Under the pieces are notes generated by a model that searched no databases, was not told the DNA's origin, and saw only the letters and a program-made list of their open reading frames with translations. A stretch of 64,000 nucleotides of DNA from Anaerolineae bacterium (GTDB lineage Bacteria; Chloroflexota; Anaerolineae; UBA1429). The position numbers and the translations under genes were made by a program. The stretch covers positions 2,688,001-2,752,000 of the forward strand of contig OY776562.1 of NCBI GenBank assembly GCA_963675785.1, written 5' to 3'. Of this stretch, positions 3,344 to 47,353 are shown in pieces (within the stretch, counting starts at the first letter, position 1; each line of letters begins with the position of its first letter).

Positions 3344-5124
3344 AGCTCCAGCGTCTCCTGCTGGGCCTGGGTTTACTTTTGTGCATAGCCATCCTTGCCT
3401 CATTGGCAATTCGCGCAATACCAGGTCCCGCTGGAGAGATTGAGCCGTTCGATTCACTCTTTGAGGGTATCATCCGAGAGGATGAATACCCTCAAAGCAA
3501 AGAGTACGTCCTCGGTGATCTCGCCTCCATCCCCATCGTTCAAAACAGTACCTCAGATCGCACCTGGATCGAGGCCAGTCTGGTAGCTCAATCTGATGAC
3601 CTAGTCATCTGGTTGGAGGATGGCCTTGTCGTTGAGCAAGAGGCCTTCGATCACATCCTCTCTGTTTTTGAAGAGTCGTCTCTCCCAGTTCTCGCAGCCG
3701 TCTATCCCGACGAAACCAGTTCACTGGCTAGCGAGGAGCGTTTCAATATTGTCATTGCACAGTATAGTGGTTCGTCTGGCTATTTTTCCTCGTGGGTGAC
3801 CACAGACGCCCCCAGTAATGCCGTCTATGTTTCAGTCGTGTTGAACATCGCTGCTGAACCGGGCAATGATACCTTTGATTCGGTGCTAGTTCATGAGATG
3901 GGTCATTACTTGCAATGGCTGGCCGATGATGACGAAGACACCTGGGTCAGCGAGGGATTCTCGACGCTCATCGAAGACCTCTGCGGCTATACTACCTCAC
4001 AACGCGCCACCATTGCCTACGGTCTACCTTCGGATACCCAACTGAACACTTGGGGATCGCAAAACTCTGCCTCCCACTATGCCATCTCCTTTGCCTTTTT
4101 TCGTTTTCTCCATGACCGCTACGGCATAGAAGCCATTACCGATATCGCCCATTCGCCCGCGAATGGCTTGGAGGGCATACTCGACGGCCTGGCAGCAGCC
4201 GGTTTCGAGATCGACGAGCAAGACTTGATGGCAGATTGGGCCTTGGCTGGCGTCGCCGCCACAGCCGGTATGCCCGAATACGGCTATGCAGATATGGAGC
4301 CGCATGTCGTGCCCTATCCCTTGTCCTCCGCCTCAGATTCGTATGCCCAAGAAACTGCCGAATACGCCACCGACTATTACTTGATAGATACACGCACCCC
4401 CATCACCCTGACTTTCTCTGGAGAGACTACAACATCGCTCATGCCCCAGCCTCCAATGGAAACGAGGGTGTGGTGGTCGGGTAACGGAGACCGGCAAACA
4501 ACCTGGCTAGAGTTGGAACTGGATCTTACGGACATGCAGACTGCCAACCTGAGCTATGACCTCTGGTACGAGTTAGAAGAACGCTGGGATTGGGCCTATG
4601 CGCTGGTCTCAACACCTGATGATAAAGAATGGACACCTCTTCAAACCGCTAATATAGCTCAGGAGAATCAGGAAAACGGGTGGTTCGGTTATACCGGCAT
4701 GTCAGGTTCTGCAGAAGATGAGGGGAAATGGGTAGAAGAGATTGTGAATCTGGATGCCTATTGCGGCCAAGTCATCCATCTACGCATTCAGTGCGAGAGC
4801 GACGATGCCATCAATTTGGGGGGAATTGCCTTGTGTGATGTGCGGCTCAACGATGTGTCGGTGGCCTCTGGGGGAGCAGAAGCTCGTTCGGTGTGGCGCA
4901 CCCATGGATTCAAGCACGTTTGGCCAACCGTAACACAGGATTATGTGGTACAGATCATCTCTCCTGAGGCGAAAAGTGTGGAACGGCTCGAACTCACAGA
5001 GGAGGAAACACAAATCGCCCTCTCCCCTGAACAGGGTGAGAGTGTCATTCTGGCCATAACGCCCCTGGCCAGGTGGACCATCTATCCTGCCGAATACTCC
5101 CTAGACCTTGAATACCTCGACTAG
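3340..5124 (+). CDS. Secreted or anchored zinc metalloprotease (immune inhibitor A / M6-M30-like)
   Basis: N-terminal signal/TM. VLVHEMGH followed by TWVSEG. C-terminal WYELEERWDWAY beta-sandwich as in InhA-like proteins. ATGA overlap with the upstream stop. Confidence 0.75.
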   Translation: MKLQRLLLGLGLLLCIAILASLAIRAIPGPAGEIEPFDSLFEGIIREDEYPQSKEYVLGDLASIPIVQNSTSDRTWIEASLVAQSDDLVIWLEDGLVVEQEAFDHILSVFEESSLPVLAAVYPDETSSLASEERFNIVIAQYSGSSGYFSSWVTTDAPSNAVYVSVVLNIAAEPGNDTFDSVLVHEMGHYLQWLADDDEDTWVSEGFSTLIEDLCGYTTSQRATIAYGLPSDTQLNTWGSQNSASHYAISFAFFRFLHDRYGIEAITDIAHSPANGLEGILDGLAAAGFEIDEQDLMADWALAGVAATAGMPEYGYADMEPHVVPYPLSSASDSYAQETAEYATDYYLIDTRTPITLTFSGETTTSLMPQPPMETRVWWSGNGDRQTTWLELELDLTDMQTANLSYDLWYELEERWDWAYALVSTPDDKEWTPLQTANIAQENQENGWFGYTGMSGSAEDEGKWVEEIVNLDAYCGQVIHLRIQCESDDAINLGGIALCDVRLNDVSVASGGAEARSVWRTHGFKHVWPTVTQDYVVQIISPEAKSVERLELTEEETQIALSPEQGESVILAITPLARWTIYPAEYSLDLEYLD

Positions 5125-6474
5125 GCGTCGCGCCAATTGATCCTCTTGTTCCGGCAACACCGTGCGCAAATCGATCAAGAGACGATCCTGCTGAATGCGC
5201 GCTACCACCGCAGGGCTGCCAGTGCGTAGGGCAGCCGCTTGTTCCACCGTTACGGAGATGCTCAACAAAAAGGCGGGGAGGGTTTCATCGGGCAAGGAAC
5301 CGCCACCCACAGCCGAACGGCCTTCGACGATCTCCCAACTACTACCAACAGGCCCCACCTTTTCCAAAAGGGCCTCAGTGCGTTCAGCCAACTCGTCGAG
5401 GGTGGTAGAGATCATTCGCCAAACAGGTACGGCACGCTCAGCCTCGCCCCGCAGGTAATGCAGCAAATTTGCCTGAATGCCAGCGATGGTGGTCTTGTCG
5501 ACGCGTAGGGCACGTGTCAGCGGGAAACCTTTGAGTTGGGCAATGAGCTCGGCCTTGCCGACGATAATACCAGCCTGCGGCCCACCCAACAGTTTGTCGC
5601 CGCTAAAAGTAATGATATCGGCACCGGCCTGCACACTCTCTTGCACCGTAGGTTCGTGCACCAATCCATAGGCCTGCGTATCCAAGAGGGTGCCGCTGCC
5701 CAGGTCGTCAAAGACGGGAATATCGCGTTGATGGGCCAGCTCGACCAATTCTGTTAGTGAAGCTTCATGGGTGAACCCGCGAACCCGGAAATTGCTAGTA
5801 TGCACACGCATCAACGCAGCGGTACCTTCGCCAAGCGCAGCCTCGTAATCGCGAATGTAGGTGCGATTGGTCGTGCCAACCTCAACCAACTGAGCACCAC
5901 TTTGAGTCATCACATCGGGGATACGGAAGCCACCGCCAATCTCCACCAGTTGTCCACGTGAGATGACTACCTCCTGACCACGTGCCAAACAGGAGAGAGT
6001 AAGAAGCACAGCCCCGGCATTGTTGTTCACTAGCAGGGCTGCCTCGGCGCCGGTCAAACGGCATAACAAATTCTCAGCATGGGAATAGCGAGAGCCGCGC
6101 TTGCCGCTTTCCAGATCGAATTCGAGATTGCTATAGCCCTGGCCGGCCTGCTGCATGGCCTGCAACACGGCCCCGCTCAAAGGGGCCCTGCCCAAATTGG
6201 TGTGTAGCACTACACCTGTGGCATTGATCACCGGCACTAGCGAAGGGGCCAACAGAGCCTGGGCAGTAACAAGCACACGCTCACGCAACGTTTGATCACC
6301 ACAGTACTCGGCGCCAGCCAAAATGGCGTGGCGCTCTTGATCAACCTCACGGCGAGCCGCTTCCAAAAGAGTATCACGCCCCAGAGAGGCCAAATATTCA
6401 TCCAGGTCACGCAATAATGCATCTACCGAAGGAAGCGCGCTCAAACGCTGCTGCAAGTCTGTCATAAAAGGCAT
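5101..6474 (-). CDS. selA: L-seryl-tRNA(Sec) selenium transferase (selenocysteine synthase)
   Basis: VINATGVVLHTNLGRAPL, SRGQLVEIGGGFRIPDVM, FSGDKLLGGPQAG, RALRVDK. Confidence 0.97.
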   Translation of the reverse strand: MPFMTDLQQRLSALPSVDALLRDLDEYLASLGRDTLLEAARREVDQERHAILAGAEYCGDQTLRERVLVTAQALLAPSLVPVINATGVVLHTNLGRAPLSGAVLQAMQQAGQGYSNLEFDLESGKRGSRYSHAENLLCRLTGAEAALLVNNNAGAVLLTLSCLARGQEVVISRGQLVEIGGGFRIPDVMTQSGAQLVEVGTTNRTYIRDYEAALGEGTAALMRVHTSNFRVRGFTHEASLTELVELAHQRDIPVFDDLGSGTLLDTQAYGLVHEPTVQESVQAGADIITFSGDKLLGGPQAGIIVGKAELIAQLKGFPLTRALRVDKTTIAGIQANLLHYLRGEAERAVPVWRMISTTLDELAERTEALLEKVGPVGSSWEIVEGRSAVGGGSLPDETLPAFLLSISVTVEQAAALRTGSPAVVARIQQDRLLIDLRTVLPEQEDQLARRLVEVFKV

Positions 6475-6479
6475 ACCTT

Positions 6480-13833: not shown

Positions 13834-14364
13834 ATGGGATCTGTACTTGTTCTTAATGCTACGTATCAACCTCTAAGCACGGTAAGCACTCGCCGAGCAG
13901 TCGTCCTGCTGCTTAAAGAAAAGGCAGAACTGCTTGAAGCAGCCGAGAGCCGCTTACGCTCGGCCAATATTAGCCTGCCCGTTCCCCTCGTGATCCGCCT
14001 CGTCTACTATGTGCGAGTGCCAAACCACTTTGGCATTCATCTCAACCGGGCCAATGTGCTCTTGCGCGACAACTACACTTGTCAATATTGCGGCGCCACG
14101 CCCAGCCGCAAAGAACTCACCATCGACCACGTCGTACCACGCGTTCTTGGCGGAACCACCACCTGGGATAATCTGGTATGTGCCTGCAAGCCGTGCAATC
14201 TCAAAAAAGGTGGCCGGACTCCCGAGCAGGCCAATATGCCTTTGAGAAAAATACCCGGTGAGCCCCGCTACATGGCACTTGTGGTAGCTGGAAGCGTAGA
14301 ACAGCCCCAGGTGTGGGACAAGTATCTGGCTGCCTGGGTAACCAAAATGCCTTCTCTTAATTGA
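13834..14364 (+). CDS. HNH endonuclease (McrA-like, VLVLN family)
   Basis: VLVLNATYQPL, RDNYTCQYCG, TIDHVVPR..GG.TTWDNLVCACKPCN.KKG. Confidence 0.92.
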   Translation: MGSVLVLNATYQPLSTVSTRRAVVLLLKEKAELLEAAESRLRSANISLPVPLVIRLVYYVRVPNHFGIHLNRANVLLRDNYTCQYCGATPSRKELTIDHVVPRVLGGTTTWDNLVCACKPCNLKKGGRTPEQANMPLRKIPGEPRYMALVVAGSVEQPQVWDKYLAAWVTKMPSLN

Positions 14365-30187: not shown

Positions 30188-30233
30188 GACACCGTGCAAG
30201 GGCGCTCGGGCGCCACGCATGGTGTCTTTTTTT
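30188..30233 (+). terminator. Terminator-like hairpin in the 5' leader (possible attenuator)
   Basis: GACACCGTGC/GCATGGTGTC stem with inner GGCGC/GCGCC stem, followed by T7. Confidence 0.5.
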
Positions 30234-30253
30234 ATTTGACTGGAGGTCTTGGC

Positions 30254-31405
30254 ATGAAGGCGCTATCAACTGCTGTTTCGAACATGAGCCGTTCCCCAAT
30301 TCGGGCTATGTTTGACGCAGCCGCTGCTGTGCCCGATGCCATCTACCTGGCGTTGGGCCAACCAGATTTTCCGATTCCGGCGCATGTTGCCCAAACCGCA
30401 GCCAAAGCGTGTACTGATTCGTACACTGGTTACACCTCCAACGCGGGAATTATGGAACTTCGTCAGGCAATCTGTAAAAAGCTGGCACGAGAAAACAACC
30501 TCCACGTCGAAACAGACAACATTATCGTCACCAGCGGTGCCATGCAATCCATTCATTTAGCAATGAGTGCACTGCTCAGCCCGGGAGACGACATTCTCTT
30601 GCCGAATCCTGGCTATGGCAATTTCATCATGGCCGCCAAGCTCTGCTATGGAAATCCCATTGAATACCCAACACCACCAGAGCTGGACTTTACACCTGAT
30701 TTTGATGCCTTGGAAGAGTTGGTTACGCCGAACACAAAGGTCATGCTCATAAACAGCCCCTCCAATCCGACGGGAGCTGTATGGAACGCTGAAATCATGC
30801 GGGCTTGCTTTGAGTTCTGCCAGCGGCATGATCTCTATTTGATCTCGGACGAGACCTATGATCAGTTAGTGTACGAAGGCGAACATATCAGCCCAGCGAT
30901 TTGGGATACTGAAGGTCGCGTGCTCACCATCTTTACTCTTTCCAAAACGTATTCAATGACGGGATGGCGCGTAGGTTGGACTGTGGCCTCCAAAGAGATT
31001 GTTTCTGCCATGTCAATGTGCCAGGAACCCGTTGTAAGCTGCATCAACACCGTTGCCCAGTATGCGGCAATTGCTGCTCTGGAAGGACCGCAGGATTGCG
31101 TTGTCGATATGGTGGCGGATTATCGGCATCGACGAGATCTGGCCGTTGAGACAGCAAAAAAACTGGGATTGGATATTTATTACCCTCACGGTGCTTTCTA
31201 TCTGTTGATCAACATCAAAGAGAGTGATCTCACCTCGGTGCCGTTTAGTGAGTCACTTCTCCAAACAGAACATGTCGCTGTTGCACCTGGCGCAGGATTC
31301 GGTAGTATGTGTGATGATTATGTACGCATCAGCCTGTGTGCAGCGGAAAATGATGTGATCCAGGGCATCAAAAGAATTGCCCGACACATGGATCGAGCCG
31401 TCTGA
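30254..31405 (+). CDS. PLP-dependent aminotransferase class I/II
   Basis: GQPDF, NSPSNPTGAV, ISDETYD, SKTYSMTGWRVG, YVRIS. GGAGG precedes ATG 30254. Confidence 0.92.
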   Translation: MKALSTAVSNMSRSPIRAMFDAAAAVPDAIYLALGQPDFPIPAHVAQTAAKACTDSYTGYTSNAGIMELRQAICKKLARENNLHVETDNIIVTSGAMQSIHLAMSALLSPGDDILLPNPGYGNFIMAAKLCYGNPIEYPTPPELDFTPDFDALEELVTPNTKVMLINSPSNPTGAVWNAEIMRACFEFCQRHDLYLISDETYDQLVYEGEHISPAIWDTEGRVLTIFTLSKTYSMTGWRVGWTVASKEIVSAMSMCQEPVVSCINTVAQYAAIAALEGPQDCVVDMVADYRHRRDLAVETAKKLGLDIYYPHGAFYLLINIKESDLTSVPFSESLLQTEHVAVAPGAGFGSMCDDYVRISLCAAENDVIQGIKRIARHMDRAV

Positions 31406-31436
31406 CACAGGCCAGTGTTCGCAGGAGGCCTCGGAC

Positions 31437-32384
31437 GTGCAGCAGGCAATATCGTGTCAGAATCTTACAAAGCATTTTGGCGAGAAGAAAGCCGTTCAAG
31501 GACTTGATCTTGAGATCGGCCAGGGCGAGGTCTTTGGTTTTCTGGGGCCGAACGGTGCCGGGAAAACCACCACCGTTCGCCTGCTCAATGGCCTTCTTGC
31601 GCCCACCAGCGGCAGCGCTACCGTACTTGGTATGAATATTCTAGAGGACGCATCGGCTATCCGTGCGTCCTCTGGTGTTTTGACCGAAACACCCGGTCTC
31701 TATGAATCCCTCACGCTGGAAGAAAACCTCCGCTTTTACGGCGAACTTTACCGCGTACCAGCAAATGATCTCGATAAGCGCATCACTGATTTGTTGGAAG
31801 AATTTGACTTGGTTGACCGCGCTCATGATCATGTAGGTACTCTGAGCAAAGGTCTTCATCAACGCATGGCTATTCTCCGAGCTCTGATCCACGATCCGCA
31901 GATTCTCTTTTTGGACGAGCCCACCGCAGGTCTGGACCCAGCCGCCACGCGCCAGGTTATCGAACTGATTAGTGATATGAGCCAAAAACGCGGACGAACT
32001 GTCTTTTTGTGTACCCATAACCTGGATGTTGCCCAAAAACTGTGTGACCGCATTGGTGTCATCGATCACGGTATTCTGCAAGCTGTAGGCACACCAAAAG
32101 AACTAGCAAGCGAACTCTGGAGACAATGCCAGGTTGAACTTGTGCTGGGTAATGTAAACGACAGTCGTCTGGACGCGCTCAGAGAGGCCCCGTTCATGCT
32201 GAATCTTGCAGTCCATGGCGACCAAGTCTCTGTCACTCTATCAGATGATGAAAAGATACCCGAATTGACCCGCTGGCTTGTACAAAACGAACTGGATGTT
32301 TATTCAGTCACGCCACAACAGCACACACTCGAAGATATCTATTTCAAGATCCAGGGAAACGATGAGAGCGAGGCAGGCGAATGA
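31437..32384 (+). CDS. ABC-2 type transporter ATP-binding protein
   Basis: GPNGAGKTT, LSKG, FLDEPTAGLD. GGAGG precedes GTG 31437. Confidence 0.92.
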   Translation: MQQAISCQNLTKHFGEKKAVQGLDLEIGQGEVFGFLGPNGAGKTTTVRLLNGLLAPTSGSATVLGMNILEDASAIRASSGVLTETPGLYESLTLEENLRFYGELYRVPANDLDKRITDLLEEFDLVDRAHDHVGTLSKGLHQRMAILRALIHDPQILFLDEPTAGLDPAATRQVIELISDMSQKRGRTVFLCTHNLDVAQKLCDRIGVIDHGILQAVGTPKELASELWRQCQVELVLGNVNDSRLDALREAPFMLNLAVHGDQVSVTLSDDEKIPELTRWLVQNELDVYSVTPQQHTLEDIYFKIQGNDESEAGE

Positions 32385-33205
32385 TGAAATTCGAATGGCG
32401 CACCATCAAAGCAATCGCCCGCAAAGACCTTAGGCTAGCTCTGCAGAATAAGAACATTCTGGTGCCGACAATCCTCGTCCCCGCTATCATTCTAGTCATC
32501 ATCCCCGCTATCATGGTTTCTGTGCCACGTTGGGCCTCGTTGGATGAAATGTCTTATGACGATATCGAGCCCTTTATTCGCATGATAACCGCTGCTGGGC
32601 TAAACATCGACATGAGCGATTACGTTGAGGCTTGGATCATTGGGAGCGCAAGCTATATGTTTGCCCCCATGTTCCTCATTATTCCGCTTATGACTTCATC
32701 AATCCTGGCATCAGACTCGTTCGTGGGAGAAAGGGAAAGACACACCATGGAGGGTCTGCTGTATACGCCGGTTAGCACGCGAGATTTGTTTATCGGCAAA
32801 GTACTCTCGGCCTTTGTACCAGCCCTCATTATTGAGGCTGTCTCTTTTGTCGCCTATGCCGTCGTGGTCAACGCGGCGGGATACTATGCCATGCAGCGAA
32901 TCTTTTTCCCGCCGACTTTTTGGTGGGTGCTGCTTCTGTGGCTTGGCCCTGGCGTATCTCTCTCCGGCATCGGTATCACGGTTATGATCTCTTCCAAAAC
33001 ACAGACCTTTGTAGAGGCCCAACAATGGAGCGGCATTCTTGTGCTGCCCATTGTGCTCGTCATGGTCGGCCAACTCGCTGGTGTATTTGTTTTGGGAACG
33101 GGCATCGTCTTTTTGATCGGCGCCATATTCTGGGCTGTAGGCATAGCCGCCACCTTGTACGGAGCCAAAACGTTTCACCGCTCCGAACTCATTAGCCAGG
33201 TATAG
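32381..33205 (+). CDS. ABC-2 type permease
   Basis: About 6 TM helices; SFVGERERHTMEGLLYTPVS..DLFIGK. Confidence 0.88.
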   Translation: MMKFEWRTIKAIARKDLRLALQNKNILVPTILVPAIILVIIPAIMVSVPRWASLDEMSYDDIEPFIRMITAAGLNIDMSDYVEAWIIGSASYMFAPMFLIIPLMTSSILASDSFVGERERHTMEGLLYTPVSTRDLFIGKVLSAFVPALIIEAVSFVAYAVVVNAAGYYAMQRIFFPPTFWWVLLLWLGPGVSLSGIGITVMISSKTQTFVEAQQWSGILVLPIVLVMVGQLAGVFVLGTGIVFLIGAIFWAVGIAATLYGAKTFHRSELISQV

Positions 33206-33220
33206 CCAAAGGAATGCTAT

Positions 33221-34231
33221 ATGCTCAGTAATCTGCATCAGCAAAAACGCTTTCTGAGGCAACGCGAGAGCAGTTACAATCGCAACGGCGGAAATCGCGA
33301 TTACATCGTCATCGAGGCTGGAACATCCTATGCGGCGCCTCAACTCCTAGGGGCAGGCATCATTCGCCATTTGTGGTTTACAGTGGTTCCTGGCTCTGAA
33401 GATGCCTACCGAAAATTAGTTTTGCAAATCACCTTTGATGAGGTTGGTGAACCTCAAGTCAACGTACCCCTTGCTGACTTGTTCATGTTCGGTCACGGCC
33501 ATCTCGTCGATATAAATAATGCTGCTGTGCAGGTGAGCCGCCAGCCCCATCTCACGGAGCCTCCCTACCGCGGATCGCTCAACTGTATGTTCCCCATGCC
33601 TTTTGAGCATTCAGCCAAGGTAGTGCTCACTAACCATTCAACTGTAGATGCCAACGTTTTTTACTATGTCGATTGGGAAGCACACGAGTTGTTAGAAGAA
33701 CCCGTGCTCTACTTTCATGCTACGTTGAATCAGGAACACACTACACCACCTATGAATCAGCCCGTGCAACCTCACGGCAACTTTGATGCCAACATCACAA
33801 ATCTGGGCTGGGATGAGAATTATTGCCTTTTGGATGCCCGAGGCTATCTGGGGCATTATGTGGGGACAAGTCTTTCCATCTACTGCCAACCGGGAGAATC
33901 AGGCAAGTGGTGGGAGGGTGATGATATGTTCATCATCGATGGCGAGCCATGGCCGCCCCGTTTACATGGTACCGGCACAGAGGATTATTTCAACCTCGCC
34001 TGGGGATTCAGAAAAGTAGATTGCCGCCCCGAGTACGGCGTGACTTATCTTGATAAAGGCCCCGGCGATACTAACCAAATAGACGGCAAGTTTTCCATGT
34101 ACCGTCTACATATCAGCGACTCAATACCTTTTAAAACGTCTTTGTTGGCGACACTAGAGCATGGCCATGCGAATGATTGCAGCGCCGAGTACCGGTCTGT
34201 CGCCTATTGGTATGGCAGAAAGCTAGTGTGA
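33221..34231 (+). CDS. DUF2961 / glycoside hydrolase family 172-like protein
   Basis: GIIRHLWFT, NCMFPMPF, WWEGDDMFIIDGE, HGTGTEDYFN.AWG, EHGHAN, SVAYWY. Confidence 0.85.
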   Translation: MLSNLHQQKRFLRQRESSYNRNGGNRDYIVIEAGTSYAAPQLLGAGIIRHLWFTVVPGSEDAYRKLVLQITFDEVGEPQVNVPLADLFMFGHGHLVDINNAAVQVSRQPHLTEPPYRGSLNCMFPMPFEHSAKVVLTNHSTVDANVFYYVDWEAHELLEEPVLYFHATLNQEHTTPPMNQPVQPHGNFDANITNLGWDENYCLLDARGYLGHYVGTSLSIYCQPGESGKWWEGDDMFIIDGEPWPPRLHGTGTEDYFNLAWGFRKVDCRPEYGVTYLDKGPGDTNQIDGKFSMYRLHISDSIPFKTSLLATLEHGHANDCSAEYRSVAYWYGRKLV

Positions 34232-34239
34232 GAACAGTC

Positions 34240-35628
34240 ATGTCATTGAATCAAACCCATCTGACCGAAACACTCTATGCACAATACCGGGCAAGGTTTC
34301 CCAAATCGGCTCAGGCCCATGAGCGTTCATTGAACAGCCTGGTCGACGGCGTAAGCCACACTGCCCGCCTGGTCGAGCCTTATCCTATTCGAATTGAAAA
34401 TGCTCGCGGTGCTATCGTCGAGGATATTGATGGGCACGAAATTGTCGATCTGTGGCAGGGCCACTATGCTAACATCATCGGTCATAACCCCGAGCCAGTA
34501 CGCCGCGCACTGATAGAGGCCCTTGAGGCAGGAAATGGCCTGCAAACAGGTCATGTGGAAGAAGCCCAGGCCACCTTTGCCGAAATGCTGCTCAAGGATA
34601 CCGGAGATGACCGTGTTAGGATGACAACCGCCGGTACTCTGGCCACTATGTATGCCATGATGCTGGCAAGGGGCTATACTGGACGCCAAATCGTAGTCAA
34701 GACCGCCGGTGGCTGGCACGGCGCCAGTCCGTCGGGCTTGCGCGGAGTACAGCGAAACCGCGATGGCTATAACCATACCGATTCGCAGGGCATTACAGCA
34801 CAAGATAATGAGACCACCCTGGTCATCGCTTTTAACGACAGCCAGGCGCTGATTGATCTGTTTGAAACACGGGGAAACGAGATCGCCTGCTTTATCTGCG
34901 AGCCTGTGCTGGGATCTGCAGGGTTTATCCCCGCCACCCGCGAATATCTTCAGACTGCACGCCAACTCACCGAGCGTTTTGGCTCACTCTTGATTTTGGA
35001 CGAGATCATCACTGGTTATCGCTATTGTTTGGGTGGCGTCCAGCAGATGTACAACGTAAAAGCCGACCTCACAACCTACGGCAAAGTCATCGGCGGGGGT
35101 ATGCCTATGGCAGCTATCACTGGTCGAGCGGATATTATGGATCTTATGAGCGTCAAGAGCCCCAGACGCGTTTGGGGTAGCGGCGGCACCTTCTCTGCTC
35201 ATCCTTCAAGCCTGATTGCTGGCACAGCCATGATCTCGTACCTTCATGAACACAAAGCTGAAGTCTACCCTGTATTGGCAAACACCACCGAAATACTGCG
35301 CAACCGCATCGAAGAGACTTTTGCCAGACACAACATTATCGCCAGATGCACGGGCCACAGTGATGGGCCACTCGATGGCTCACTCGTATCCGTATATTTT
35401 CCAAAAGAGGTGAATTGGGTGCCGTCGTCGGCAGAAGAGATGCTCAATCCGCTCTATTGCAATGCAGCCTTGCGCGAAAATCTGCTGCGCTTGGGCATGT
35501 TGATCAACGATGTAAACGTGGTACATGGCTTTGGCGCGCTTTCTACAACACACACTCTGCAGCATATCGACCGTATCGTTCAAGCTTATGATGCTTTTGC
35601 CCAAATGATCGAGGATCACACCGACTAG
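34240..35628 (+). CDS. Class III aminotransferase (glutamate-1-semialdehyde aminomutase-like)
   Basis: DIDGHEIVD, LILDEIITGYR, DLTTYGKVIGGGMP, GGTFSAHP. Alternative start GTG 34228. Confidence 0.85.
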   Translation: MSLNQTHLTETLYAQYRARFPKSAQAHERSLNSLVDGVSHTARLVEPYPIRIENARGAIVEDIDGHEIVDLWQGHYANIIGHNPEPVRRALIEALEAGNGLQTGHVEEAQATFAEMLLKDTGDDRVRMTTAGTLATMYAMMLARGYTGRQIVVKTAGGWHGASPSGLRGVQRNRDGYNHTDSQGITAQDNETTLVIAFNDSQALIDLFETRGNEIACFICEPVLGSAGFIPATREYLQTARQLTERFGSLLILDEIITGYRYCLGGVQQMYNVKADLTTYGKVIGGGMPMAAITGRADIMDLMSVKSPRRVWGSGGTFSAHPSSLIAGTAMISYLHEHKAEVYPVLANTTEILRNRIEETFARHNIIARCTGHSDGPLDGSLVSVYFPKEVNWVPSSAEEMLNPLYCNAALRENLLRLGMLINDVNVVHGFGALSTTHTLQHIDRIVQAYDAFAQMIEDHTD

Positions 35629-35640
35629 TCGGAGAATACT

Positions 35641-36624
35641 ATGAGCGACGTAGAGAATCACGACGATAAAAAGAATGCCAAAAAAGATTTACTATGGGCC
35701 TTTATTGCCCTGGTAATTTTTATAGCGATCTGTCTGGCCGTGCTCATCTCTCATAATCCAACTGCTGGACGTTCTGTGCAGGCGGACGGGCTAGAGCTAA
35801 CGGTTTTGCACACCAACGACACTTTGGGGTACTTGACCGGCTGTGGTTGAGCGCACGACACCGGAGGAGTTGCCCGTCGGGCAACTTTAATTCAAGAGAC
35901 CCAGGCGACCTATACGAACACGCTCGTACTGGATGCAGGTAATTCACTGCTCTATGACACATCGCCTGCCACCACAACTTACGGTAGAACTAGCATCGAG
36001 GCTATGAACCTACTGGGATATGATGTTCTCAACCTAGGGCTGAGCGACATCACCTTTTTGACGCAAACCCAACTGGAAGCGCGTATCACTGAGGCAGAAT
36101 TCGCCGTCATCAGCGCTAACGCTTATTCACTTGCCACGGGCGATCTCATCACCGATCCCTATGTAGTTCTGGAGAGAGGTGGCTATAGCATCGGCATCAT
36201 CGGCCTCAGTGAGCCGGGAGATGGCGAGGAGATGGCGGCAAGCGATCCGGAAGAAGCCTTGGAAAGATGGTTGCCAGAAGTAGCCAAGCAAGCAGATATC
36301 GTCATCCTTCTTTCTCACACAGGTGTGGATACCGACGCTGCTCTGGGTGAAGAGTTCGAGGATATTGATCTCGTTGTGAGCGGCAGGAACAGAGTGCTGG
36401 ACGCTCCCATGACCCTTTCAACAGGAGCAGTGCTCATTCATGCTGACTATGCCAGTTCGGGAAGCGCTGGGGAACGCGTCGGCATTGCCCAGCTGAGTTT
36501 TTCGTCCAAGGGCGAGCTAGCTGATATCAGCTGGGAAAAAATCTTGCTGGATGAGGACGTGCCTGTTGATGAGGAAATGAGTGCCTGGGTCGACGAGGTA
36601 TTGGCAGATAGTAGCAATTACTAG
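35641..36624 (+). CDS. Membrane-anchored UshA-like (metallophosphoesterase-fold) selenoprotein; UGA at 35848-35850 read as Sec
   Basis: Track ORFs 35641..35850 and 36004..36624 are in frame and joined across one TGA: ...HTNDTLGYLTGCG-U-AHDTGGVARRATLIQETQ...LVLDAGN... A hairpin lies 17 nt downstream, and selA is in the window. Confidence 0.85.
35866..35888 (+). promoter_or_regulatory. Putative bacterial SECIS element
   Basis: GGAGTTGCCC-GTC-GGGCAACTTT: 8 Watson-Crick pairs plus 2 G-U pairs, with G in the apical loop, just after the in-frame TGA. Confidence 0.7.
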
Positions 36625-38018
36625 TAGGCGTTCTTTCTGTCGCGGAATATGCTAAAGACAGTGCGAAGAATGATCTTGATATCAAAGAGGATCGACCAGT
36701 TCTCGATGTAATACAGATCGTATTTGGTCCGTTCGATGATCGAAGTTTCGCCGCGCAGCCCATTGACCTGAGCCCATCCAGTCATACCACCCTTTTCCAT
36801 GTGGCGTTCCATGTATCGGGGAACCACCTGCTTGAACTGTTCTACAAAAACCGGCCTCTCTGGACGTGGCCCCACAAGGCTCATATCACCCATGAGTACA
36901 TTGATGAGCTGGGGTAGTTCATCCAGGGAGGTTTTGCGTAAAAAAGCCCCCAACCGCGTTTTTCTGGGGTCATCCTTGGTCGCCCACACTGGCCCCGTAT
37001 CCGATTCAGCCCCCACTCGCATAGAACGGAACTTGAGCATGCCAAAGGGCTTGCCATCCAGCCCCACACGCACCTGGGTATATAGAACCGAACCGGGCGA
37101 ATCAAGTTTGATAGCCAGTGCTATGGCAAAAAGCAGCGGAGAGATAACAACTAGGCCAGTAGCGCTAACGATGATATCCATGGCTCGCTTAACAGCCAAT
37201 TTCCAGCCATCCAAAGCAATATCCCGCACCATTAGCATAGGCAGGCCGTCCAAGTCTCCAATAGAAACCTGTGATGCCATAATCTGGAACATATCAGGCA
37301 AAATGCGTACCGAAGCCTTGGCAGCAGCGCAATCCGCAATCATATCCAAGAGATCGGCATGTGTCGGTTCCAGCAGAGCGATGATCACTTCGGTCACTTT
37401 TTGTTCCCGAATGATTCGCTCCAGGTCTTTGGGTGTGCCGAGCACAGGTACACCAGCTACATCCTTCAGTGTCGTATTCGCATCGACAAACCCCACGACC
37501 TCATAGCCAAGATGAGCAGACTGGATGGTCTTTTGTAGAATTACTCGGGCCAGTTCGCCAGTGCCCACAAGAATCAGTCGCTCGGGATGCCTACGGCGTA
37601 GCGTCGAGGCCAGTTTGGAAACCAACGCACGGTCGATGATGACAAAGATGATTGTCAGCGCCCAGGTATAGAGAATAATGCCACGGCTCACCAGTTGTAT
37701 ACCGCTAGAAACAAGCATACTCGCTGCTGTATCCACAACGGTAGCGACACTCACAGCAGAGACGACACTGGAAAAAAGATCAATACGAGATTGATTATGG
37801 TTGCGGTGATAAAGCTGTGTAAAGAAAAAAGTCACCACAACGACCATCACATGCACAATACCCAAAGCTATATAGCCGCTAAAAGATCCCAGCTTGATAG
37901 GCGTAGGAAGTGGAATAGCGAGGCGTAAAACATAGGCACCATAAAACGCTAGTGCTGCGGCAATAGAATCCGCCAGCACGGTTATTGCTGTAATCAAAGT
38001 ACGCTGTTGCTTGCTCAC
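36621..38018 (-). CDS. Undecaprenyl-phosphate glucose phosphotransferase (WcaJ/WbaP family)
   Basis: VKRAMDI, KFRSM, DDPR.T..G.FLRKTSLDELPQL.NVL.GDMSLVGPRPE, GMTGWAQVNG. GAGG precedes GTG 38018. Confidence 0.92.
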   Translation of the reverse strand: MSKQQRTLITAITVLADSIAAALAFYGAYVLRLAIPLPTPIKLGSFSGYIALGIVHVMVVVVTFFFTQLYHRNHNQSRIDLFSSVVSAVSVATVVDTAASMLVSSGIQLVSRGIILYTWALTIIFVIIDRALVSKLASTLRRRHPERLILVGTGELARVILQKTIQSAHLGYEVVGFVDANTTLKDVAGVPVLGTPKDLERIIREQKVTEVIIALLEPTHADLLDMIADCAAAKASVRILPDMFQIMASQVSIGDLDGLPMLMVRDIALDGWKLAVKRAMDIIVSATGLVVISPLLFAIALAIKLDSPGSVLYTQVRVGLDGKPFGMLKFRSMRVGAESDTGPVWATKDDPRKTRLGAFLRKTSLDELPQLINVLMGDMSLVGPRPERPVFVEQFKQVVPRYMERHMEKGGMTGWAQVNGLRGETSIIERTKYDLYYIENWSILFDIKIILRTVFSIFRDRKNAY

Positions 38019-38025
38019 ATTCACC

Positions 38026-38943
38026 TCAGGCCGATGCAACGTGTTTGCGATCATCCGGACGCAGGGCATTTTGCGCCAGTGAAAAATGGTGCTTGAGCCA
38101 GATACCAGCATCGATAAGCCAATTCAAGAGAAAGAACGTTTGCTGGCGGTAATATTTGCGATGAAAGATGCGCATTGCCTCGTAAAAAGCGTCGATAGAT
38201 CTGGTGCTGCGCTTTGAACTGGCCGCCCCTTTGATGTGGGTCACAACAGTGCGGGGATAATACACAACGCGCCAACCAGCCTCTTTGATGCGATAACAGA
38301 GATCCAAGTCCTCACCGTACATAAAAAAGGCTTCATCAAGCAATCCCACATCCTGCAGGGCTTCCCGACGCATGAACATAAAAGCGCCAACCACTGAATC
38401 CACATCCACTTGCTCATCGACATCCAAAAACGACAGATTATAGCGAGCAAATATCTTACTCTGCGGGAACAAGCGATCCAGGTAGAGCATGTGAAAAGCT
38501 GATACCCTGGGCGTAGGAAAGCTGCGCCGACAAGCTTTGTCCAGGCTGCCATCAAGCCGTACTAGTTTAGGACCTACCACACCCACATCCGGGTTCGCCT
38601 CGGCAAACTCGAAAACGTGTTGCAGTGCATCGGGCGGCAGCAGCGTATCTGGGTTCAATAGCAGTGCGTAGCACGGGCTCTCAACAGCGTCATTCTCAAA
38701 GCCCATCGCGCGAAGGCCAATGTTATTGGCATAAGCATACCCGCCATTACGTTCTGCCGCAATGACCTGCACCCAGGGGTGCCGTTCCCGAACCATCTCA
38801 ATGCTGGCATCCGTAGAATGATTATCAACGACGACCACCCGCAACTCAAAACTGTATACACTGGCGGCCAACGTACAAAGGCAATCATCCAGTTCATCTT
38901 TTGTATTATAGTTTACTATAACGATTGCCAAGTCGGCCATCAA
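38026..38943 (-). CDS. Glycosyltransferase family 2 (WbbL-like)
   Basis: IVIVNYNT, VVDNHSTD, LLNPD, LDEAFFMYGEDLDLC. Confidence 0.9.
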   Translation of the reverse strand: MMADLAIVIVNYNTKDELDDCLCTLAASVYSFELRVVVVDNHSTDASIEMVRERHPWVQVIAAERNGGYAYANNIGLRAMGFENDAVESPCYALLLNPDTLLPPDALQHVFEFAEANPDVGVVGPKLVRLDGSLDKACRRSFPTPRVSAFHMLYLDRLFPQSKIFARYNLSFLDVDEQVDVDSVVGAFMFMRREALQDVGLLDEAFFMYGEDLDLCYRIKEAGWRVVYYPRTVVTHIKGAASSKRSTRSIDAFYEAMRIFHRKYYRQQTFFLLNWLIDAGIWLKHHFSLAQNALRPDDRKHVASA

Positions 38944-38988
38944 GTCTCCTGCTCTAGATTTCTCTCGGCCCGAACGGAATCAGATGCG

Positions 38989-39966
38989 CTAGAATCGTCT
39001 ACGAGCCCAAGGGCTCTTGGGCGCATTCCCCCGCAAACGCCACGCCAGACCTGCCGGATAACCGCACATCTTGGCGACATCGCCAATGATGCGCAAGCCG
39101 ATAGCGCCCAAGTAATCTACTATCCTCGCATCTTTTAAACCAGAAGCGAGCCGGCGCGTGGGTTCTAAGGATAAAAAGGCCAGAACTGACAGACATAGCA
39201 GCATCCAGCTAGGGCCGACTGTGAAGGTCAAAATCAACCCGGCAAGCAAAGCGCAGTAGGTGCCATATCGCAGCAGATGCCGAAATACGTAAAGGCCAGC
39301 CTTGCCATCTCCCCGGGCATAACGGTAATACTGCCGCCAAAAAGAGCGCACACTGAGCCTAGGCCGAAAATGAACCAATGCATTAGGTACAAATACAAAC
39401 TTGAGCCCAGCATCATAGAGGCTGAAATCAAAGATCAAATCTTCGCAGTAATCGAGCCATTCGGGATATCCGCCCACACTCTCCCACGCAGATCGGGTAA
39501 ATGCCACCGAACGCGATGAAGGGCAAAAATGGGCAGCATCAATCTCTTGCAGTGTCGGTAGTGTGATGGCCCCGAGCACAGCCTCAAAGCGCGTCTGCGG
39601 AGCCGCCATAAAAAAGCCGCTCACGATATCCGGAGGATTATCACTCTCAAAGGGAGCAGTGAGCGCCTCGATCCAATGAGGATCGAGGGAGACGCCAGCA
39701 TCCGTAACGGCCACGACCGCATAGGTGGCACTAGCAATGGCCTTGTTCCTCCCCTGAGCGATATTCAGCCCTGGTGCAGAGATTATCCGCAGCAGAAAAG
39801 GCAATTCAGGTATAAGACGCTGCATCAAAGCCACAGTTCCATCGGTCGAGCCTCCATCGACAATGACCATCTCATCAGGTAGCCTTGTCTGCTCGCTAAT
39901 GGATTTCAGCAGCGCCTGAATGGAACCTGCTTCATTGTAGACGGTTGCTACAAGGGATATTTGCAT
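38989..39966 (-). CDS. Glycosyltransferase family 2 with C-terminal TM helices
   Basis: TVYNE, VDGGSTDGT, TDAG, GGYPEWLDYCED, RQYYRYARGDG. Confidence 0.9.
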   Translation of the reverse strand: MQISLVATVYNEAGSIQALLKSISEQTRLPDEMVIVDGGSTDGTVALMQRLIPELPFLLRIISAPGLNIAQGRNKAIASATYAVVAVTDAGVSLDPHWIEALTAPFESDNPPDIVSGFFMAAPQTRFEAVLGAITLPTLQEIDAAHFCPSSRSVAFTRSAWESVGGYPEWLDYCEDLIFDFSLYDAGLKFVFVPNALVHFRPRLSVRSFWRQYYRYARGDGKAGLYVFRHLLRYGTYCALLAGLILTFTVGPSWMLLCLSVLAFLSLEPTRRLASGLKDARIVDYLGAIGLRIIGDVAKMCGYPAGLAWRLRGNAPKSPWARRRF

Positions 39967-43650: not shown

Positions 43651-44469
43651 ATGAAAGTTCAAGTCGCCCAAGTGCGTATTTTCACGTTTATCGAACAGCA
43701 ATCAATGGATCGCGCCGAAGGCCTCGCCTGGGCTCGAAAAGCAGATGCTTTCGGCACTTTGAGCAAACTCTTTTCACGCCCCAAGGATGAGGAGTTTGAG
43801 CTGCTCTACAAAGAGCGCCGCTACATTCCCTTCTGGCACGCCACCGCCAAGTCCCTCATCACTTTTGATCGTTCGGCCCAATATCCTATTCCCGTCAAAG
43901 GGGCTGAGATCAAGTCAGTAACCATTGAAGGTAACGATTACGGCATCGTTGATGGCAAAGCCATTATTACAGGCATTGAGCACTGCGAACTCGCTGACAG
44001 TGTCCAAGTCTATGTGGATGCCCTGACCGGAGCCAAGAATGCCAAGTTGGCCGAATACCTGGCATTGCAGGCCACCGAAGTCAGCCCCGAGGAGATCGAT
44101 CAGTTGGTGACAGACGGGGCCATCGTCGTCCCGCCCGTTATGGCTGCTCCCAGCATCGCTCGTGAGGCTGTGGCAGGCCTGCCCAAAAAGATCAACGCAG
44201 ACGTGGTCAACGAGGAAACTCTTGAACTCGAAACACTGGACATCTATTTTAGGCCGGTGTACGCCTTCCAGTATCGTTGGCTGACCAAAGAACGCGAAGC
44301 CGTGATCGAGTATGACGGACTGACTGGCAAGCTGGAGATGGATGGACGTGTCTATCCTGAAGCGGCCGATCAGGCAGTGCCAGCAGATATGTTCAAGGGT
44401 GTGAATGAGGAGACCATTCTGGGTCTCTTGCCAGAGGGGCGACTGGCCATTCTTGAGGTTAAAGAATAG
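43651..44469 (+). CDS. Hypothetical protein
   Basis: 272-aa ORF with its own promoter and terminator; no family recognised. Confidence 0.7.
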   Translation: MKVQVAQVRIFTFIEQQSMDRAEGLAWARKADAFGTLSKLFSRPKDEEFELLYKERRYIPFWHATAKSLITFDRSAQYPIPVKGAEIKSVTIEGNDYGIVDGKAIITGIEHCELADSVQVYVDALTGAKNAKLAEYLALQATEVSPEEIDQLVTDGAIVVPPVMAAPSIAREAVAGLPKKINADVVNEETLELETLDIYFRPVYAFQYRWLTKEREAVIEYDGLTGKLEMDGRVYPEAADQAVPADMFKGVNEETILGLLPEGRLAILEVKE

Positions 44470-44516: not shown

Positions 44517-45857
44517 TTAGTATTCGTAACAGCTTCCACCAATAAATTCGCGCAGCAGCGAATCGGGCGGAATGGGCGAATCATCCTCAATAGGGGTAAT
44601 CTCGCGGAACAACTTGGCAACCCGTTCGGCACGGGTAAAGGCGTCCTGACGAAGAGGATCACCACGATATTCATCTGCCCACTGCTTGAATTGTTCACCC
44701 AGCCTGGCTTTGAAAATGGGCAGTTCGTAGGGCAGTGCACTATTGACCACATAATCCACCGTGCTCACATAGGGGATGATGTTACGAAGCTCGCTGCTCC
44801 TCACATAATGCCAATGTTCCAGGGTCTGTTTGGGGTTATAGGCCCTATGCGTAGCATCGCGCAGCATCCTACGCATCAGGCGGATATCCGTCCAGTGCGC
44901 GTAATCCCCTTGCGAATCTTTGACCTGCATGAGTGGCTCGATGTACAGCCTAAAGCAGGACTCTGCTGGAATCCCCTCCAACATGGGGGGATACAACCCA
45001 TGCAGACTGTCGATAAGAATCGCCTCGTTGGACGCCAGCTTCATAGGCGTTTGCGCCAAATGCCGCTTGCCCGTTTTGAAATCATAAAAAGGAATCATTA
45101 CCTCTTTGCCAGCAATGAGCTGACTGAGTTGGGTGTTGATCAGCTCCAGGTCCAAAGCTTGGGGTGTCTCATAATCGTAATCACCAAACTCGTCACGCGG
45201 GTGCATCTCCAGGTCAAAGAAGTAGTTATCTACCGTGAGCGGCACCAAGGAAAGCCCCATCTTGGTCAAAAGGTGACTCAATTTGGTGGTTGTTGTCGTC
45301 TTACCAGATGAAGAAGGTCCGGCTATAATAACAATGCGTATTTGATCCTGTCGTTCGCGAACCAGCTCGGAGGCACAAGTAATATCTTCGTTATAGGCGT
45401 GATCAGTCTCACGAACGATATCAGGGAACTCACCGCGGGCAATGCGCTCGTTCAATCCCTCTGTGGTATTGACGCCGTGCTCTACGGCCCAATCTAGCAC
45501 ATGCCAGAGCTTGTGCCAGGGAATATTGCTGCTCTCTTCAGAGAATTTGCGTGCCGCTCTCTGACGTGAACGGGCTCGCTCATCACGATAGAGGATGTAG
45601 GCCTTGGCCGTACGTGCGTGGCCGTTCTCAATGAGAACCTTTTCGACGACATCCTGAATCTCTTCAACCGAAGGTATATGCCCTTCAGAAGCCTGCTGCT
45701 CCAGCATCTGCACAACTAGATCGGATAGTTCCTCGGCAGTGCTGCGATCACGGCCTCCTACGGCTACGGCAGCCCTATAGATTGCATTGGTGATGCGATC
45801 CTGGTTAAAGGGCACCACAGCGCCAGTTCGTTTGACGACATGTGTAATTTTGGCCAT
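44517..45857 (-). CDS. ATP-cone domain fused to a uridine kinase/phosphoribulokinase-like P-loop domain
   Basis: VVKRTGAVVPFNQDRITNAI...VEEIQDVVEKVL...TAKAYILYR (ATP cone); AGPSSSGKTT; DIRLMRRMLRD. GGAGG precedes ATG 45857. Confidence 0.85.
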   Translation of the reverse strand: MAKITHVVKRTGAVVPFNQDRITNAIYRAAVAVGGRDRSTAEELSDLVVQMLEQQASEGHIPSVEEIQDVVEKVLIENGHARTAKAYILYRDERARSRQRAARKFSEESSNIPWHKLWHVLDWAVEHGVNTTEGLNERIARGEFPDIVRETDHAYNEDITCASELVRERQDQIRIVIIAGPSSSGKTTTTTKLSHLLTKMGLSLVPLTVDNYFFDLEMHPRDEFGDYDYETPQALDLELINTQLSQLIAGKEVMIPFYDFKTGKRHLAQTPMKLASNEAILIDSLHGLYPPMLEGIPAESCFRLYIEPLMQVKDSQGDYAHWTDIRLMRRMLRDATHRAYNPKQTLEHWHYVRSSELRNIIPYVSTVDYVVNSALPYELPIFKARLGEQFKQWADEYRGDPLRQDAFTRAERVAKLFREITPIEDDSPIPPDSLLREFIGGSCYEY

Positions 45858-45931
45858 GGTTCCTCCTGATGTAAAACCTTTATGGCTCGAATATACATGA
45901 CATAAACAGAAAAGTACAGAGGAGTCGCCCG

Positions 45932-47353
45932 ATGGCGAAACGCACCAAGATCGTATGCACACTCGGTCCAGCTACCAGTTCTCCGGATATCATTCGCCAA
46001 CTCATTCAAGCCGGTATGGATGTCGCCCGTCTGAATTTGTCGCATGGTTCTCATGAGGAACATGCCGAACGTATTCGGGTGCTCCGTGATGAGGCCAAAC
46101 TCGCCGGAAGGCCCATTGCCATACTTCTCGATTTGCAGGGACCCAAGATCAGGACGAGCTCCCTTGTAGACGGCAAGCCAGTTGAACTCATTGACGGGCA
46201 GGAGCTGATCATCACCACGGATTGCTGTGATGGCACTGCCGAGCGCGTTGGCACAAGCTATGAGAACCTAGCCCAGGACGTAAAACCGGGGGACAAGATT
46301 CTCGTATCTGATGGGCTTATTGAACTGCGCGTTCAAGAGGTGCGCGGACACGAAGTCATTACCACGGTGACCAACGGCGGTGAGCTTCGCGAACATCAGG
46401 GCATCAACCTGCCGGGTATTCGGATCAGTACGCCGGCCATCACCGAAAAAGATATGGAAGACCTGATCTTTGGCATCGAACAAGGTGTCGACTATGTGGG
46501 GCTTTCCTTTGTACGTAACCCCAGCGATATCATCGAGCTCAAAGAACTCATCAAACAGCACAGTGCCGAAACCAAGGTCATTGCCAAGTTAGAAAAGCCA
46601 GAAGCAATTGAGCATCTTGAGGCCATTGCCCACGTTTCTGACGGATTGATGGTGGCTCGGGGCGATCTGGGCGTCGAAATGTCGCCCGAAAAGGTCCCCG
46701 GTATTCAAAAAGAGATCATCCGTGTGGCTAATTCGTTGGCTTTACCGGTGATTACAGCCACCCAAATGCTAGAATCCATGATCCACAATCCCCAGCCTAC
46801 GCGTGCCGAAGTGAGCGACGTGGCCAACGCCATTTTTGATGGTACGGATGCGGTTATGCTGAGTGGAGAAACGGCTGTAGGCAAGTACCCGGTGAATGCC
46901 GTACGCATGATGAACCGAATTGCTAGCACATGCGACGCACAGGCGGCCAGCCTTGGGACACACAGGCCAAAGGACGAGTTTGAAGCGTTGGGTACTAGAC
47001 CGCAAGCCATCGGTGCAGCCGTAAGTGCCGTGGTGAACAGCATCCCTGTTAAGGCTCTTTGCGTTGTTACCAAAACCGGCAACAGCGCCCGTATGGCTGC
47101 TCATTATAGGCCAAACGTGCCCATCCTGGCTGTAACGCCTGATGAGGTTACTTCTAGAGAACTCTGTCTGTTCTGGGGGGTTGAGCCAGTGCTTTCTACT
47201 TATGCCCGCACCGAGCAAGAATATTATAACAAAGTGAGGCGACTAGTCATTGATCTAGGTTACTGTAAGACCGGCGACTATGTGGTGCTTACTGGGGGGC
47301 GCCCCATTGGCGATGGTGGGCCAACCAACTTTTTGGAGATTATGGGCATCTAG
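45932..47353 (+). CDS. pyk: Pyruvate kinase
   Basis: RTKIVCTLGPA, LDLQGPKIR, MVARGDLGVE, ATQMLESM, DAVMLSGETA. Confidence 0.98.
   Translation: MAKRTKIVCTLGPATSSPDIIRQLIQAGMDVARLNLSHGSHEEHAERIRVLRDEAKLAGRPIAILLDLQGPKIRTSSLVDGKPVELIDGQELIITTDCCDGTAERVGTSYENLAQDVKPGDKILVSDGLIELRVQEVRGHEVITTVTNGGELREHQGINLPGIRISTPAITEKDMEDLIFGIEQGVDYVGLSFVRNPSDIIELKELIKQHSAETKVIAKLEKPEAIEHLEAIAHVSDGLMVARGDLGVEMSPEKVPGIQKEIIRVANSLALPVITATQMLESMIHNPQPTRAEVSDVANAIFDGTDAVMLSGETAVGKYPVNAVRMMNRIASTCDAQAASLGTHRPKDEFEALGTRPQAIGAAVSAVVNSIPVKALCVVTKTGNSARMAAHYRPNVPILAVTPDEVTSRELCLFWGVEPVLSTYARTEQEYYNKVRRLVIDLGYCKTGDYVVLTGGRPIGDGGPTNFLEIMGI

Follow-up and report, generated by a model that had tools for sequence, protein, structure and literature searches.

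UshA-like selenoproteins with a CxU motif (COG0737-like) appear as table rows in the available parts of three sources (PMC2398784, PMC9312934, and PMC13188914), and a second UshA-like family, with a CxxU motif, is also tabulated in PMC13188914. In the available part of PMC2398784, UshA-like proteins constitute one of 20 major selenoprotein families in ocean metagenomes, with 76 sequences, and are singled out as one of three families that fall outside the Cys-based redox motifs. The later reviews (PMC9312934, PMC13188914), in the parts available, give UshA-like proteins as table rows with no function. Within the partly covered literature on UshA-like, Geobacter, and Anaerolineae/Chloroflexi selenoproteins and on calcineurin-like and cytochrome c554 proteins, no account of the branch described here or of its function was found. 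Additionally, no mention of UshA was found in deep-Sep, in the main text of BSepDB (its family table lay outside this scope), or in the Haft and Gwadz preprint; BSepDB, compiled from known families through homology, may already contain these genes. The UshA-like selenoprotein type and its CxU motif are thus already catalogued. What is new is a standalone, membrane-anchored, and catalytically eroded branch in the Chloroflexota, a compact single-domain version that occurs in dozens of Anaerolineae genomes together with a clean, covarying SECIS.

The protein considered here is encoded in a 64-kb stretch of Anaerolineae DNA (hereafter, the window), and its best family match is NF041198 (UshA_like_PCGU; E 2.2e-34), which has the same fold and carries CxU in the same N-terminal loop after strand 1. 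The two differ in that the window protein reads TGCGU, not PCGU (Pro replaced by Gly; Pro is present in 68 of 74 family rows), and in that it scores 118.9 bits against a cut-off of 275, over profile positions 11-270 of 519. None of the 18 Sec relatives tested (domain only) reaches this cut-off, the best scoring 222.5, and the sole two proteins that pass are long cytochrome c554 fusions. NF049981 (UshA_like_Sel_2) is a single domain of similar length (262 positions) that matches residues 53-316 of the window protein with 60.4 bits, the cut-off being 140; of the relatives tested, 0/18 pass and the highest score is 85.6. The motif of this family is CxxU, as given in the available part of PMC13188914, versus CxU in the window protein, with CxxU seen in four relatives (L004, L059, L065, and L072). 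Given these scores, the window protein is built like the members of both families but is a member of neither. With the two-metal 5'-nucleotidases (UshA, Thermus 2z1a, CD73, and SoxB) it has the N-terminal domain fold and an exported location in common; it instead lacks most metal ligands, the catalytic His, and the C-terminal domain, and has a predicted Cys-Gly-Sec loop.

An Internal TGA in an Anaerolineae Gene

The gene and the features around it that are referred to below are as follows.

35641..36624 (+), predicted selenoprotein gene; 327 codons read through one TGA, which is kept in relatives
35842..35850 (+), predicted Cys68-Gly69-Sec70 (TGT GGT TGA); Cys in 73/74 aligned rows
35631..35634 (+), GGAG ribosome-binding-like site, as judged from sequence; 6 nt before the ATG and 2 nt past the upstream stop
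35689..35745 (+), putative N-terminal hydrophobic anchor, residues 17-35, no lipobox; hydropathy maximum 3.15, modelled helix 9-37
35791..36612 (+), lone 5'-nucleotidase-type metallophosphoesterase N-terminal domain, residues 51-324, from AlphaFold, VIA, and motif columns
35866..35888 (+), candidate bacterial SECIS hairpin; core 35868-35886, GUC loop 35876-35878, 25 nt past the UGA
5101..6474 (-), selA, selenocysteine synthase; Pfam SelA E 2.7e-141, TIGR00474 above cut-off
30194..35628 (+), upstream co-oriented genes: class I/II aminotransferase, ABC ATPase, ABC-2 permease, DUF2961, class III aminotransferase

An earlier note, made from this DNA alone, had described one 327-codon frame interrupted solely by the TGA at 35848-35850, and translation of 35641-36624 reproduced this frame. 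The residues around the TGA read G-C-G-U-AHDTGGVARRAT. The downstream ORF, under translation table 11, starts at 36004, and 51 codons therefore separate it from the TGA; the residues LVLDAGN fall within these 51 codons. The gene ends 257 codons past its TGA, and the genes of relatives end 249-292 codons past theirs (L001-L004 and later loci, among those listed). The class III aminotransferase gene upstream ends 12 nt ahead of the ATG, and the GGAG in this interval may serve as a ribosome-binding-like site.

Conservation of the TGA and Cysteine Homologs

A scan of GTDB genomes confirmed at least 520 relatives among 599 candidate stretches, of which the best 80 were analyzed. An in-frame TGA was found at the Sec site in 73 of these 80 loci, 69 at the same aligned column and 4 one codon later as CxxU. 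In L078 (about 10058-10075) the TGA is present, and one nucleotide is missing from a run of A behind it, probably an assembly error; another six of the 80 are nucleotidase-type proteins without the loop. The 74 TGA loci stand at about 30-48% protein identity, and 73 of the 74 are labelled Chloroflexota, mostly Anaerolineae. The same TGA in related loci indicates that it is no sequencing error in the window. TGA is also an ordinary stop codon here: of the 36 window genes checked, 8 end in it, as do 34 of the 74 genes of the family. Codon reassignment was rejected because TGA ends ordinary genes in the same genomes. The remaining locus, L020, lies on a 2523-bp contig labelled Gammaproteobacteria, yet it is sister to a Chloroflexota gene (SH-aLRT 99), a placement that reflects mis-binning or transfer.

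Protein databases hold these genes in truncated form. In a first protein search, the 45 closest single-domain matches, taken from the 120 matches listed (the remainder, mostly canonical nucleotidases, being set aside), all start downstream of the Sec position. The same is true of all 120 matches listed by a profile search, which are annotated as separate downstream proteins; the branch is thereby cut at the UGA, and the fragments are named '5'-nucleotidase' or hypothetical. The profile and SECIS pattern could be used to correct the annotation of many genomes. Among the best 150 matches in a library clustered at 50% identity, 14 carry CxC or CxxC at the Sec site, as was to be looked for under the Sec reading; the others are N-truncated past the Sec position (73), canonical (54), mixed (5), or other (4).

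The phylogeny comprised 106 domains (74 Sec, 17 Cys, and 15 canonical) and was built with a quick IQ-TREE run with SH-aLRT supports only and midpoint rooting for drawing. Five Cys forms (P0129, P0132, P0140, P0167, and P0250) sit with all 74 Sec genes in a 79-row clade (SH-aLRT 95), and one nested Cys form is sister to L040 (SH-aLRT 97). The nesting of five Cys forms among Sec genes suggests that exchange, probably from Sec to Cys, occurred repeatedly. The sites of the homologs thus hold either TGA or Cys, which the Sec reading required. The window gene groups with L001-L004 (SH-aLRT 99). It should be noted that L001 (6707-6763) has kept the TGA and SECIS and lost the Cys (RAIG-U), with a Cys two residues from its C-terminus. 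Divergent paralog pairs were also observed within single assemblies (L003/L058, L005/L041, L044/L047, and L059/L065).

The Putative SECIS Element and the Selenocysteine Pathway

The 8-bp perfect hairpin that the earlier note had reported was found where claimed: it occupies 35868-35886, begins 17 nt past the TGA, has a GUC loop, and grows to 10 bp with two G-U pairs, with a folding energy of -14.2 kcal/mol. By itself it is only modestly beyond chance. Folding of 53 nt gave z -1.36, with 16 of 200 shuffles as good, and folding of 36 nt gave z -2.89, with 4 of 200 as good; further, an 8-bp perfect hairpin follows at a distance of 10-30 nt for 8 of the 2240 TGA triplets in the window. The case for selenocysteine rests on the homologs, that is, on the conserved TGA and a stem that covaries.

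Covariation was assessed on 71 ungapped sequences, three with shorter spacing being left out. The 8-pair stem is 87% paired in this set, and cells changed on both sides numbered 31 versus 9.3 in shuffles, with 0/500 shuffles as high. Controls in which the stem was slid were all far lower, and RNAalifold recovered the same 6-bp core unaided. Because the stem overlaps the V-A-R-R-A codons, constraint on the protein had to be excluded, and two pairs between third codon positions were examined against expectations computed from the codon usage of each gene. The first is Watson-Crick in 71 and G-U in 2 of 74 genes (25 expected), and the second is Watson-Crick in 73 and G-U in 1 of 74 (22 expected). 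With those codons excluded from the tree, the two sides of pair 1 changed 8 and 9 times, 10 jointly, and those of pair 2 changed 10 and 9 times, 10 jointly; most changes at these two synonymous pairs were therefore coupled. The Arg codon in the loop is always CGG or CGT and never CGC in family genes, in which CGC is the commonest Arg codon (386/940). The loop sequence is GGC in 50, GUC in 22, and GGA in 2 of 74, and lies 25 nt from the UGA in 71 and 22 nt in 3.

The bacterial SECIS model given in the available part of PMC13188914 has a loop of 3-9 nt, a stem of 4-16 bp, a G in the first two loop positions, a distance of 16-37 nt from the UGA, and an MFE of at most -7.5. The window hairpin agrees with all four published criteria of that model and is like the bacterial consensus in its 3-nt apical loop, 8-10 bp stem, loop that begins with G then U, spacing, and folding energy, with no difference found from the consensus as set out there. 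A stricter filter of our own passed 65 of 73 family TGAs versus 203 of 5394 other TGAs sampled. Rfam, at gathering score, gave no SECIS family match within the 64-kb window. With the TGA conserved, Cys homologs present, and the stem covarying, the earlier proposal of a hidden selenoprotein with UshA-like fold, CxU motif, and SECIS is upheld, and UGA70 almost certainly encodes selenocysteine. Further selenoproteins in the window were considered and rejected: 7 sites among 2234 TGA stops combine a TGA with a hairpin, and their frames are short or overlap other genes.

The presence of selA in the window, noted earlier, was borne out by a TIGR00474 score of 556.7 bits (cut-off 267.9) and a retained SGDK lysine motif. 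The gene is intact and, at 29 kb from the selenoprotein gene, shows the Sec pathway and is unlinked to that gene. No tRNA-Sec was found in the window with ARAGORN or Rfam and none was flagged in related loci, and selB, selC, and selD were not found within the window. In two of 73 loci (L042 and L050), no more than about 1.1 kb separates selA from the end of the family gene.

An Eroded 5'-Nucleotidase Domain

An AlphaFold model based on the alignment of 74 read-through rows has a mean pLDDT of 96.1; it replaced a first model, made from truncated homologs, in which the CGU loop had pLDDT below 50. The closest structures by VIA are 2z1a (Z 36.6, rmsd 2.1, 270 aligned), 1ush (Z 34.8), and SoxB 2wdc (Z 34.4). 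Overall, the N-terminal domains of 5'-nucleotidases and SoxB match with Z 34-37 and rmsd 1.8-2.4, and other metallophosphoesterases with Z 19 and below; Foldseek matched the metallophosphoesterase N-terminal fold with E 5e-22. In Pfam, no match to the window protein was found even at E 0.01, Metallophos included, and a look-alike search of the ESM Atlas gave no result for it.

Relative to 2z1a, motif I has changed from DTH to DTL, motif II from GD to GN, motif III from GNHE to GLSD, and motif V from GHSH to GRNR, and the His of motif IV is kept. The altered positions are presumably the metal ligands and catalytic His of UshA. Across the 74 rows, His is not among the seven commonest residues in the motif I His column, the motif II residue is Asn in 34 and Asp in 32, and the Asn and His columns of motif III are unconserved. 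Asp60 is D in 72 of 74 rows and His226 is H in 49, a retention that fits residual metal binding, and Asp98, Asp/Glu136, and a GGxxRRA helix are near-invariant in the family. The C-terminal nucleotidase (substrate-binding) domain is absent from the gene. Thus, of the earlier reading of LVLDAGN as a 5'-nucleotidase-like pattern, the fold stands and the catalytic function does not, the catalytic motifs being degenerate. The CGU loop aligns with the two-Cys loop that precedes GGVAR in CD73 and the venom 5'-nucleotidases, which we take to form a disulfide in CD73.

A rough rule picks out an N-terminal hydrophobic segment in 70 of the 74 genes of the family and, in 44 of these, a lipobox as well; a Pro/Thr linker often follows. 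Loss of the hydrolase motifs together with this anchor suggests a surface-tethered pseudo-nucleotidase with the Cys/Sec pair as its conserved chemistry.

Fusion Partners and Gene Neighborhoods

Cys relatives occur fused to DsbA-like, cytochrome c554, DUF1573, PCYCGC, or LysM domains. A search with the domain (residues 20-300) of P0207 listed 120 matches of lengths 429-1365, for which precomputed Pfam labels were used, and these fall into two classes. Among the matches listed that bear GNH, 69 of 70 have the nucleotidase C-domain and 1 of 70 has CxC; among those without GNH, CxC or CxxC is present in 49 of 50 and the nucleotidase C-domain in 0 of 50. These 50 include 24 with cytochrome c554, 13 with a redoxin domain, and 12 that match a thioredoxin-plus-membrane protein of L065. 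The latter has a separate gene next to the Sec gene in L065 and likewise in L044 and L017 (E 1e-35 to 1e-41); genes for a thioredoxin-like protein and for a CcdA/DsbD membrane protein adjoin it there. The majority of the fused Cys relatives branch outside the Chloroflexota clade and retain more of the metal site (GDQE, SH, GHxQ), so that their function may differ. The catalytic loss and the division between GNH with C-domain and CxC with redox domains turn an unknown function into a concrete assay.

Redox- or arsenic-type neighbors (ArsE-type thioredoxin, CcdA/ArsG, thioredoxin-like membrane protein, ArsR, ArsP, Acr3, ArsC, and small Fe-S protein) were found within 3 kb of the gene in 11 of 73 loci (364 kb examined), with queries that were picked after the neighbors had been viewed. 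No locus has such neighbors solely at 3-10 kb (528 kb examined), and 10 loci, from several tree branches, remain when self and sister queries are removed. In the other 62 loci, many of them on short contigs, no such neighbors were seen, and none of ArsR, ArsE, CcdA, or Acr3 type adjoin the gene in the window. A family-wide conserved operon was considered and rejected, since the largest neighbor cluster (20 loci) consists of generic ABC ATPases and the others are clade-specific.

A second hidden selenoprotein is probable in L040 at 6224-6724 (-), convergent with the family gene. It has a membrane anchor, a DUF1573/Ig-like domain (Pfam DUF1573 E 2e-9), and Gly-Cys-TGA with a GU-loop hairpin 19 nt downstream, and scores 26 bits versus 100 on NCBIfam OS_HP2_seleno. 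In P0207, the Cys-form domain likewise carries a DUF1573 fusion.

Possible Functions of the Cys-Gly-Sec Loop

In the mechanism proposed here, SelB bound to the in-frame SECIS, with its G(G/U)C loop 25 nt downstream, would recode UGA70 to selenocysteine, a step that we regard as close to certain. It is very likely that the N-terminal anchor tethers the protein to the membrane on its external side; many relatives are lipoproteins. The domain would keep the 5'-nucleotidase N-terminal fold, yet, from sequence and model, it is in all likelihood no canonical two-metal phosphoesterase because the His of motif I, Asp of motif II, Asn-His of motif III, and His of motif V are replaced and the substrate-binding domain is absent. 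With recoding signals, fold, loss of the hydrolase site, and an export signal emerging from comparison, we infer that the Cys-Gly-Sec loop may be the working site, Cys68 and Sec70 alternating between selenol/thiol and selenenylsulfide. The protein would then act as an extracytoplasmic thiol-redox enzyme or relay, re-reduced by a CcdA/DsbD-type membrane protein and a thioredoxin-like partner or, in other lineages, by a multihaem cytochrome.

A selenol/thiol redox module that works outside the cytoplasm and is built on a dead nucleotidase scaffold is, on balance, the best reading, if by no means a secure one, because the TGA is conserved, Cys homologs nest among Sec genes, the SECIS covaries, catalytic residues are lost, and redox domains occur as fusion partners and redox genes as neighbors. 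Against it stand the absence of redox neighbors from the window gene and from 62 of 73 loci, the choice of neighbor queries after the fact, the position of most fused relatives outside the clade, the persistence of Asp60 and His226, and the loss of the Cys in L001. The function, which the earlier note had left unknown, can accordingly be narrowed to an extracytoplasmic thiol/selenol role in a protein that is no working UshA. More tentatively, a nucleotidase fold may have become a Cys/Sec redox module outside the thioredoxin fold through stepwise erosion of its metal site, with electrons supplied by CcdA/thioredoxin or a multihaem cytochrome. If true, this would provide UshA-like selenoproteins, catalogued since 2008 with no function in the available parts of the sources above, with a mechanism open to testing, which might concern the handling of arsenic or metalloids.

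Alternatively, the CxU loop might serve at the cell surface to trap, chaperone, or reduce a soft metal or metalloid (As(III), an organoarsenical, Cu, or Hg) that it binds or handles, with or without the help of Asp60 and His226. We consider this unlikely, though less so than the rivals that follow. Within 3 kb of the gene lie Acr3 (L017, L040), an ArsP-family permease (L017, L055), an ArsC-like protein (L044), ArsR (L030, L040), and ArsF/ArsG (L005), and Asp60 is almost invariant. The gene types just named are described as arsenic resistance genes in the available part of PMC9144182. Arsenic-type neighbors, however, occur in a minority of loci and in none of the subclade of the window gene, and the fusion partners are electron-transfer domains, not metal transporters. 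Moreover, a general redox role would suit these neighbors equally well, since ArsE, ArsF, and ArsG themselves resemble thioredoxin and CcdA. It is improbable that the protein is a hydrolase or transferase of new mechanism, its pocket binding a phospho- or sulfo-ester and a Sec nucleophile replacing the two-metal center. The fully retained fold, the near-invariance of Asp98, Asp/Glu136, Asp60, and the GGxxRRA helix, and the position of the CGU loop directly after motif I would suit such an enzyme; the missing substrate-binding domain, the mixed motif II, and the association of the CxC form with redox-domain fusions speak against it, and the overlapping SECIS partly accounts for the conservation of RRA.

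Still less credible is an ordinary, active 5'-nucleotidase in which Sec belongs to a structural loop, as the two Cys at the same place do in CD73 and the venom nucleotidases. Strong sequence and structure matches in the PDB are all to 5'-nucleotidases, the Cys-containing loop of which aligns with the CGU loop, and database fragments carry the name 5'-nucleotidase, but the window protein and the family at large have lost GNH, DxH, and GHxH, no Pfam Metallophos match is obtained at E 0.01, and there is no C-terminal domain. The reading that dispenses with Sec altogether, in which only the downstream ORF is made and the TGA is a true stop, arises from a pseudogene lesion or a sequencing error, or has been reassigned to Trp or Gly, is largely refuted and has scarcely any probability left. 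It would accommodate the lack of a tRNA-Sec in the window or of one flagged in the loci, the lack of selB and selD in the 64-kb window, the weak significance of the hairpin alone, and the annotation of all 120 listed matches as separate downstream proteins. It does not accommodate the same TGA in 74 divergent loci, the conservation of the first beta-strand and motif I upstream of the TGA, the covarying SECIS, or the use of TGA to end ordinary genes in the same genomes; in relatives, Cys takes the site, and no Trp form was seen.

Genomic Surroundings

The co-oriented genes at 30194..35628 probably share one transcript with the selenoprotein gene, which comes last. The order ATPase, permease, class III aminotransferase precedes the gene in all four nearest relatives (L001-L004), which may reflect inheritance of an operon without a functional link; scans for promoters and terminators were close to shuffle levels. 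Genes at 36621-39966 and 44517-45962 of the window have counterparts around the family gene elsewhere: genes for WcaJ-like sugar transferases or GT2 proteins flank it in L002, L003, L041, L052, L063, and L064, and the ATP-cone/uridine-kinase gene is close to it in six other loci. These WcaJ-like, GT2, and ATP-cone surroundings are an old chromosomal neighborhood. Elsewhere in the window, three ORFs have no Pfam match (7888-10464 (-), 858 aa; 23070-24284 (-), 404 aa; 43651-44469 (+), 272 aa), and a small HNH endonuclease of 176 aa is encoded at 13834-14364 (+), with 64 bits versus 175 on an IscB model. At 222-2833, a radical SAM/SPASM protein with an N-terminal PqqD-like domain is followed by a coiled-coil-like protein of 416 aa without a Pfam match, a possible peptide-modifying locus clipped by the window edge.
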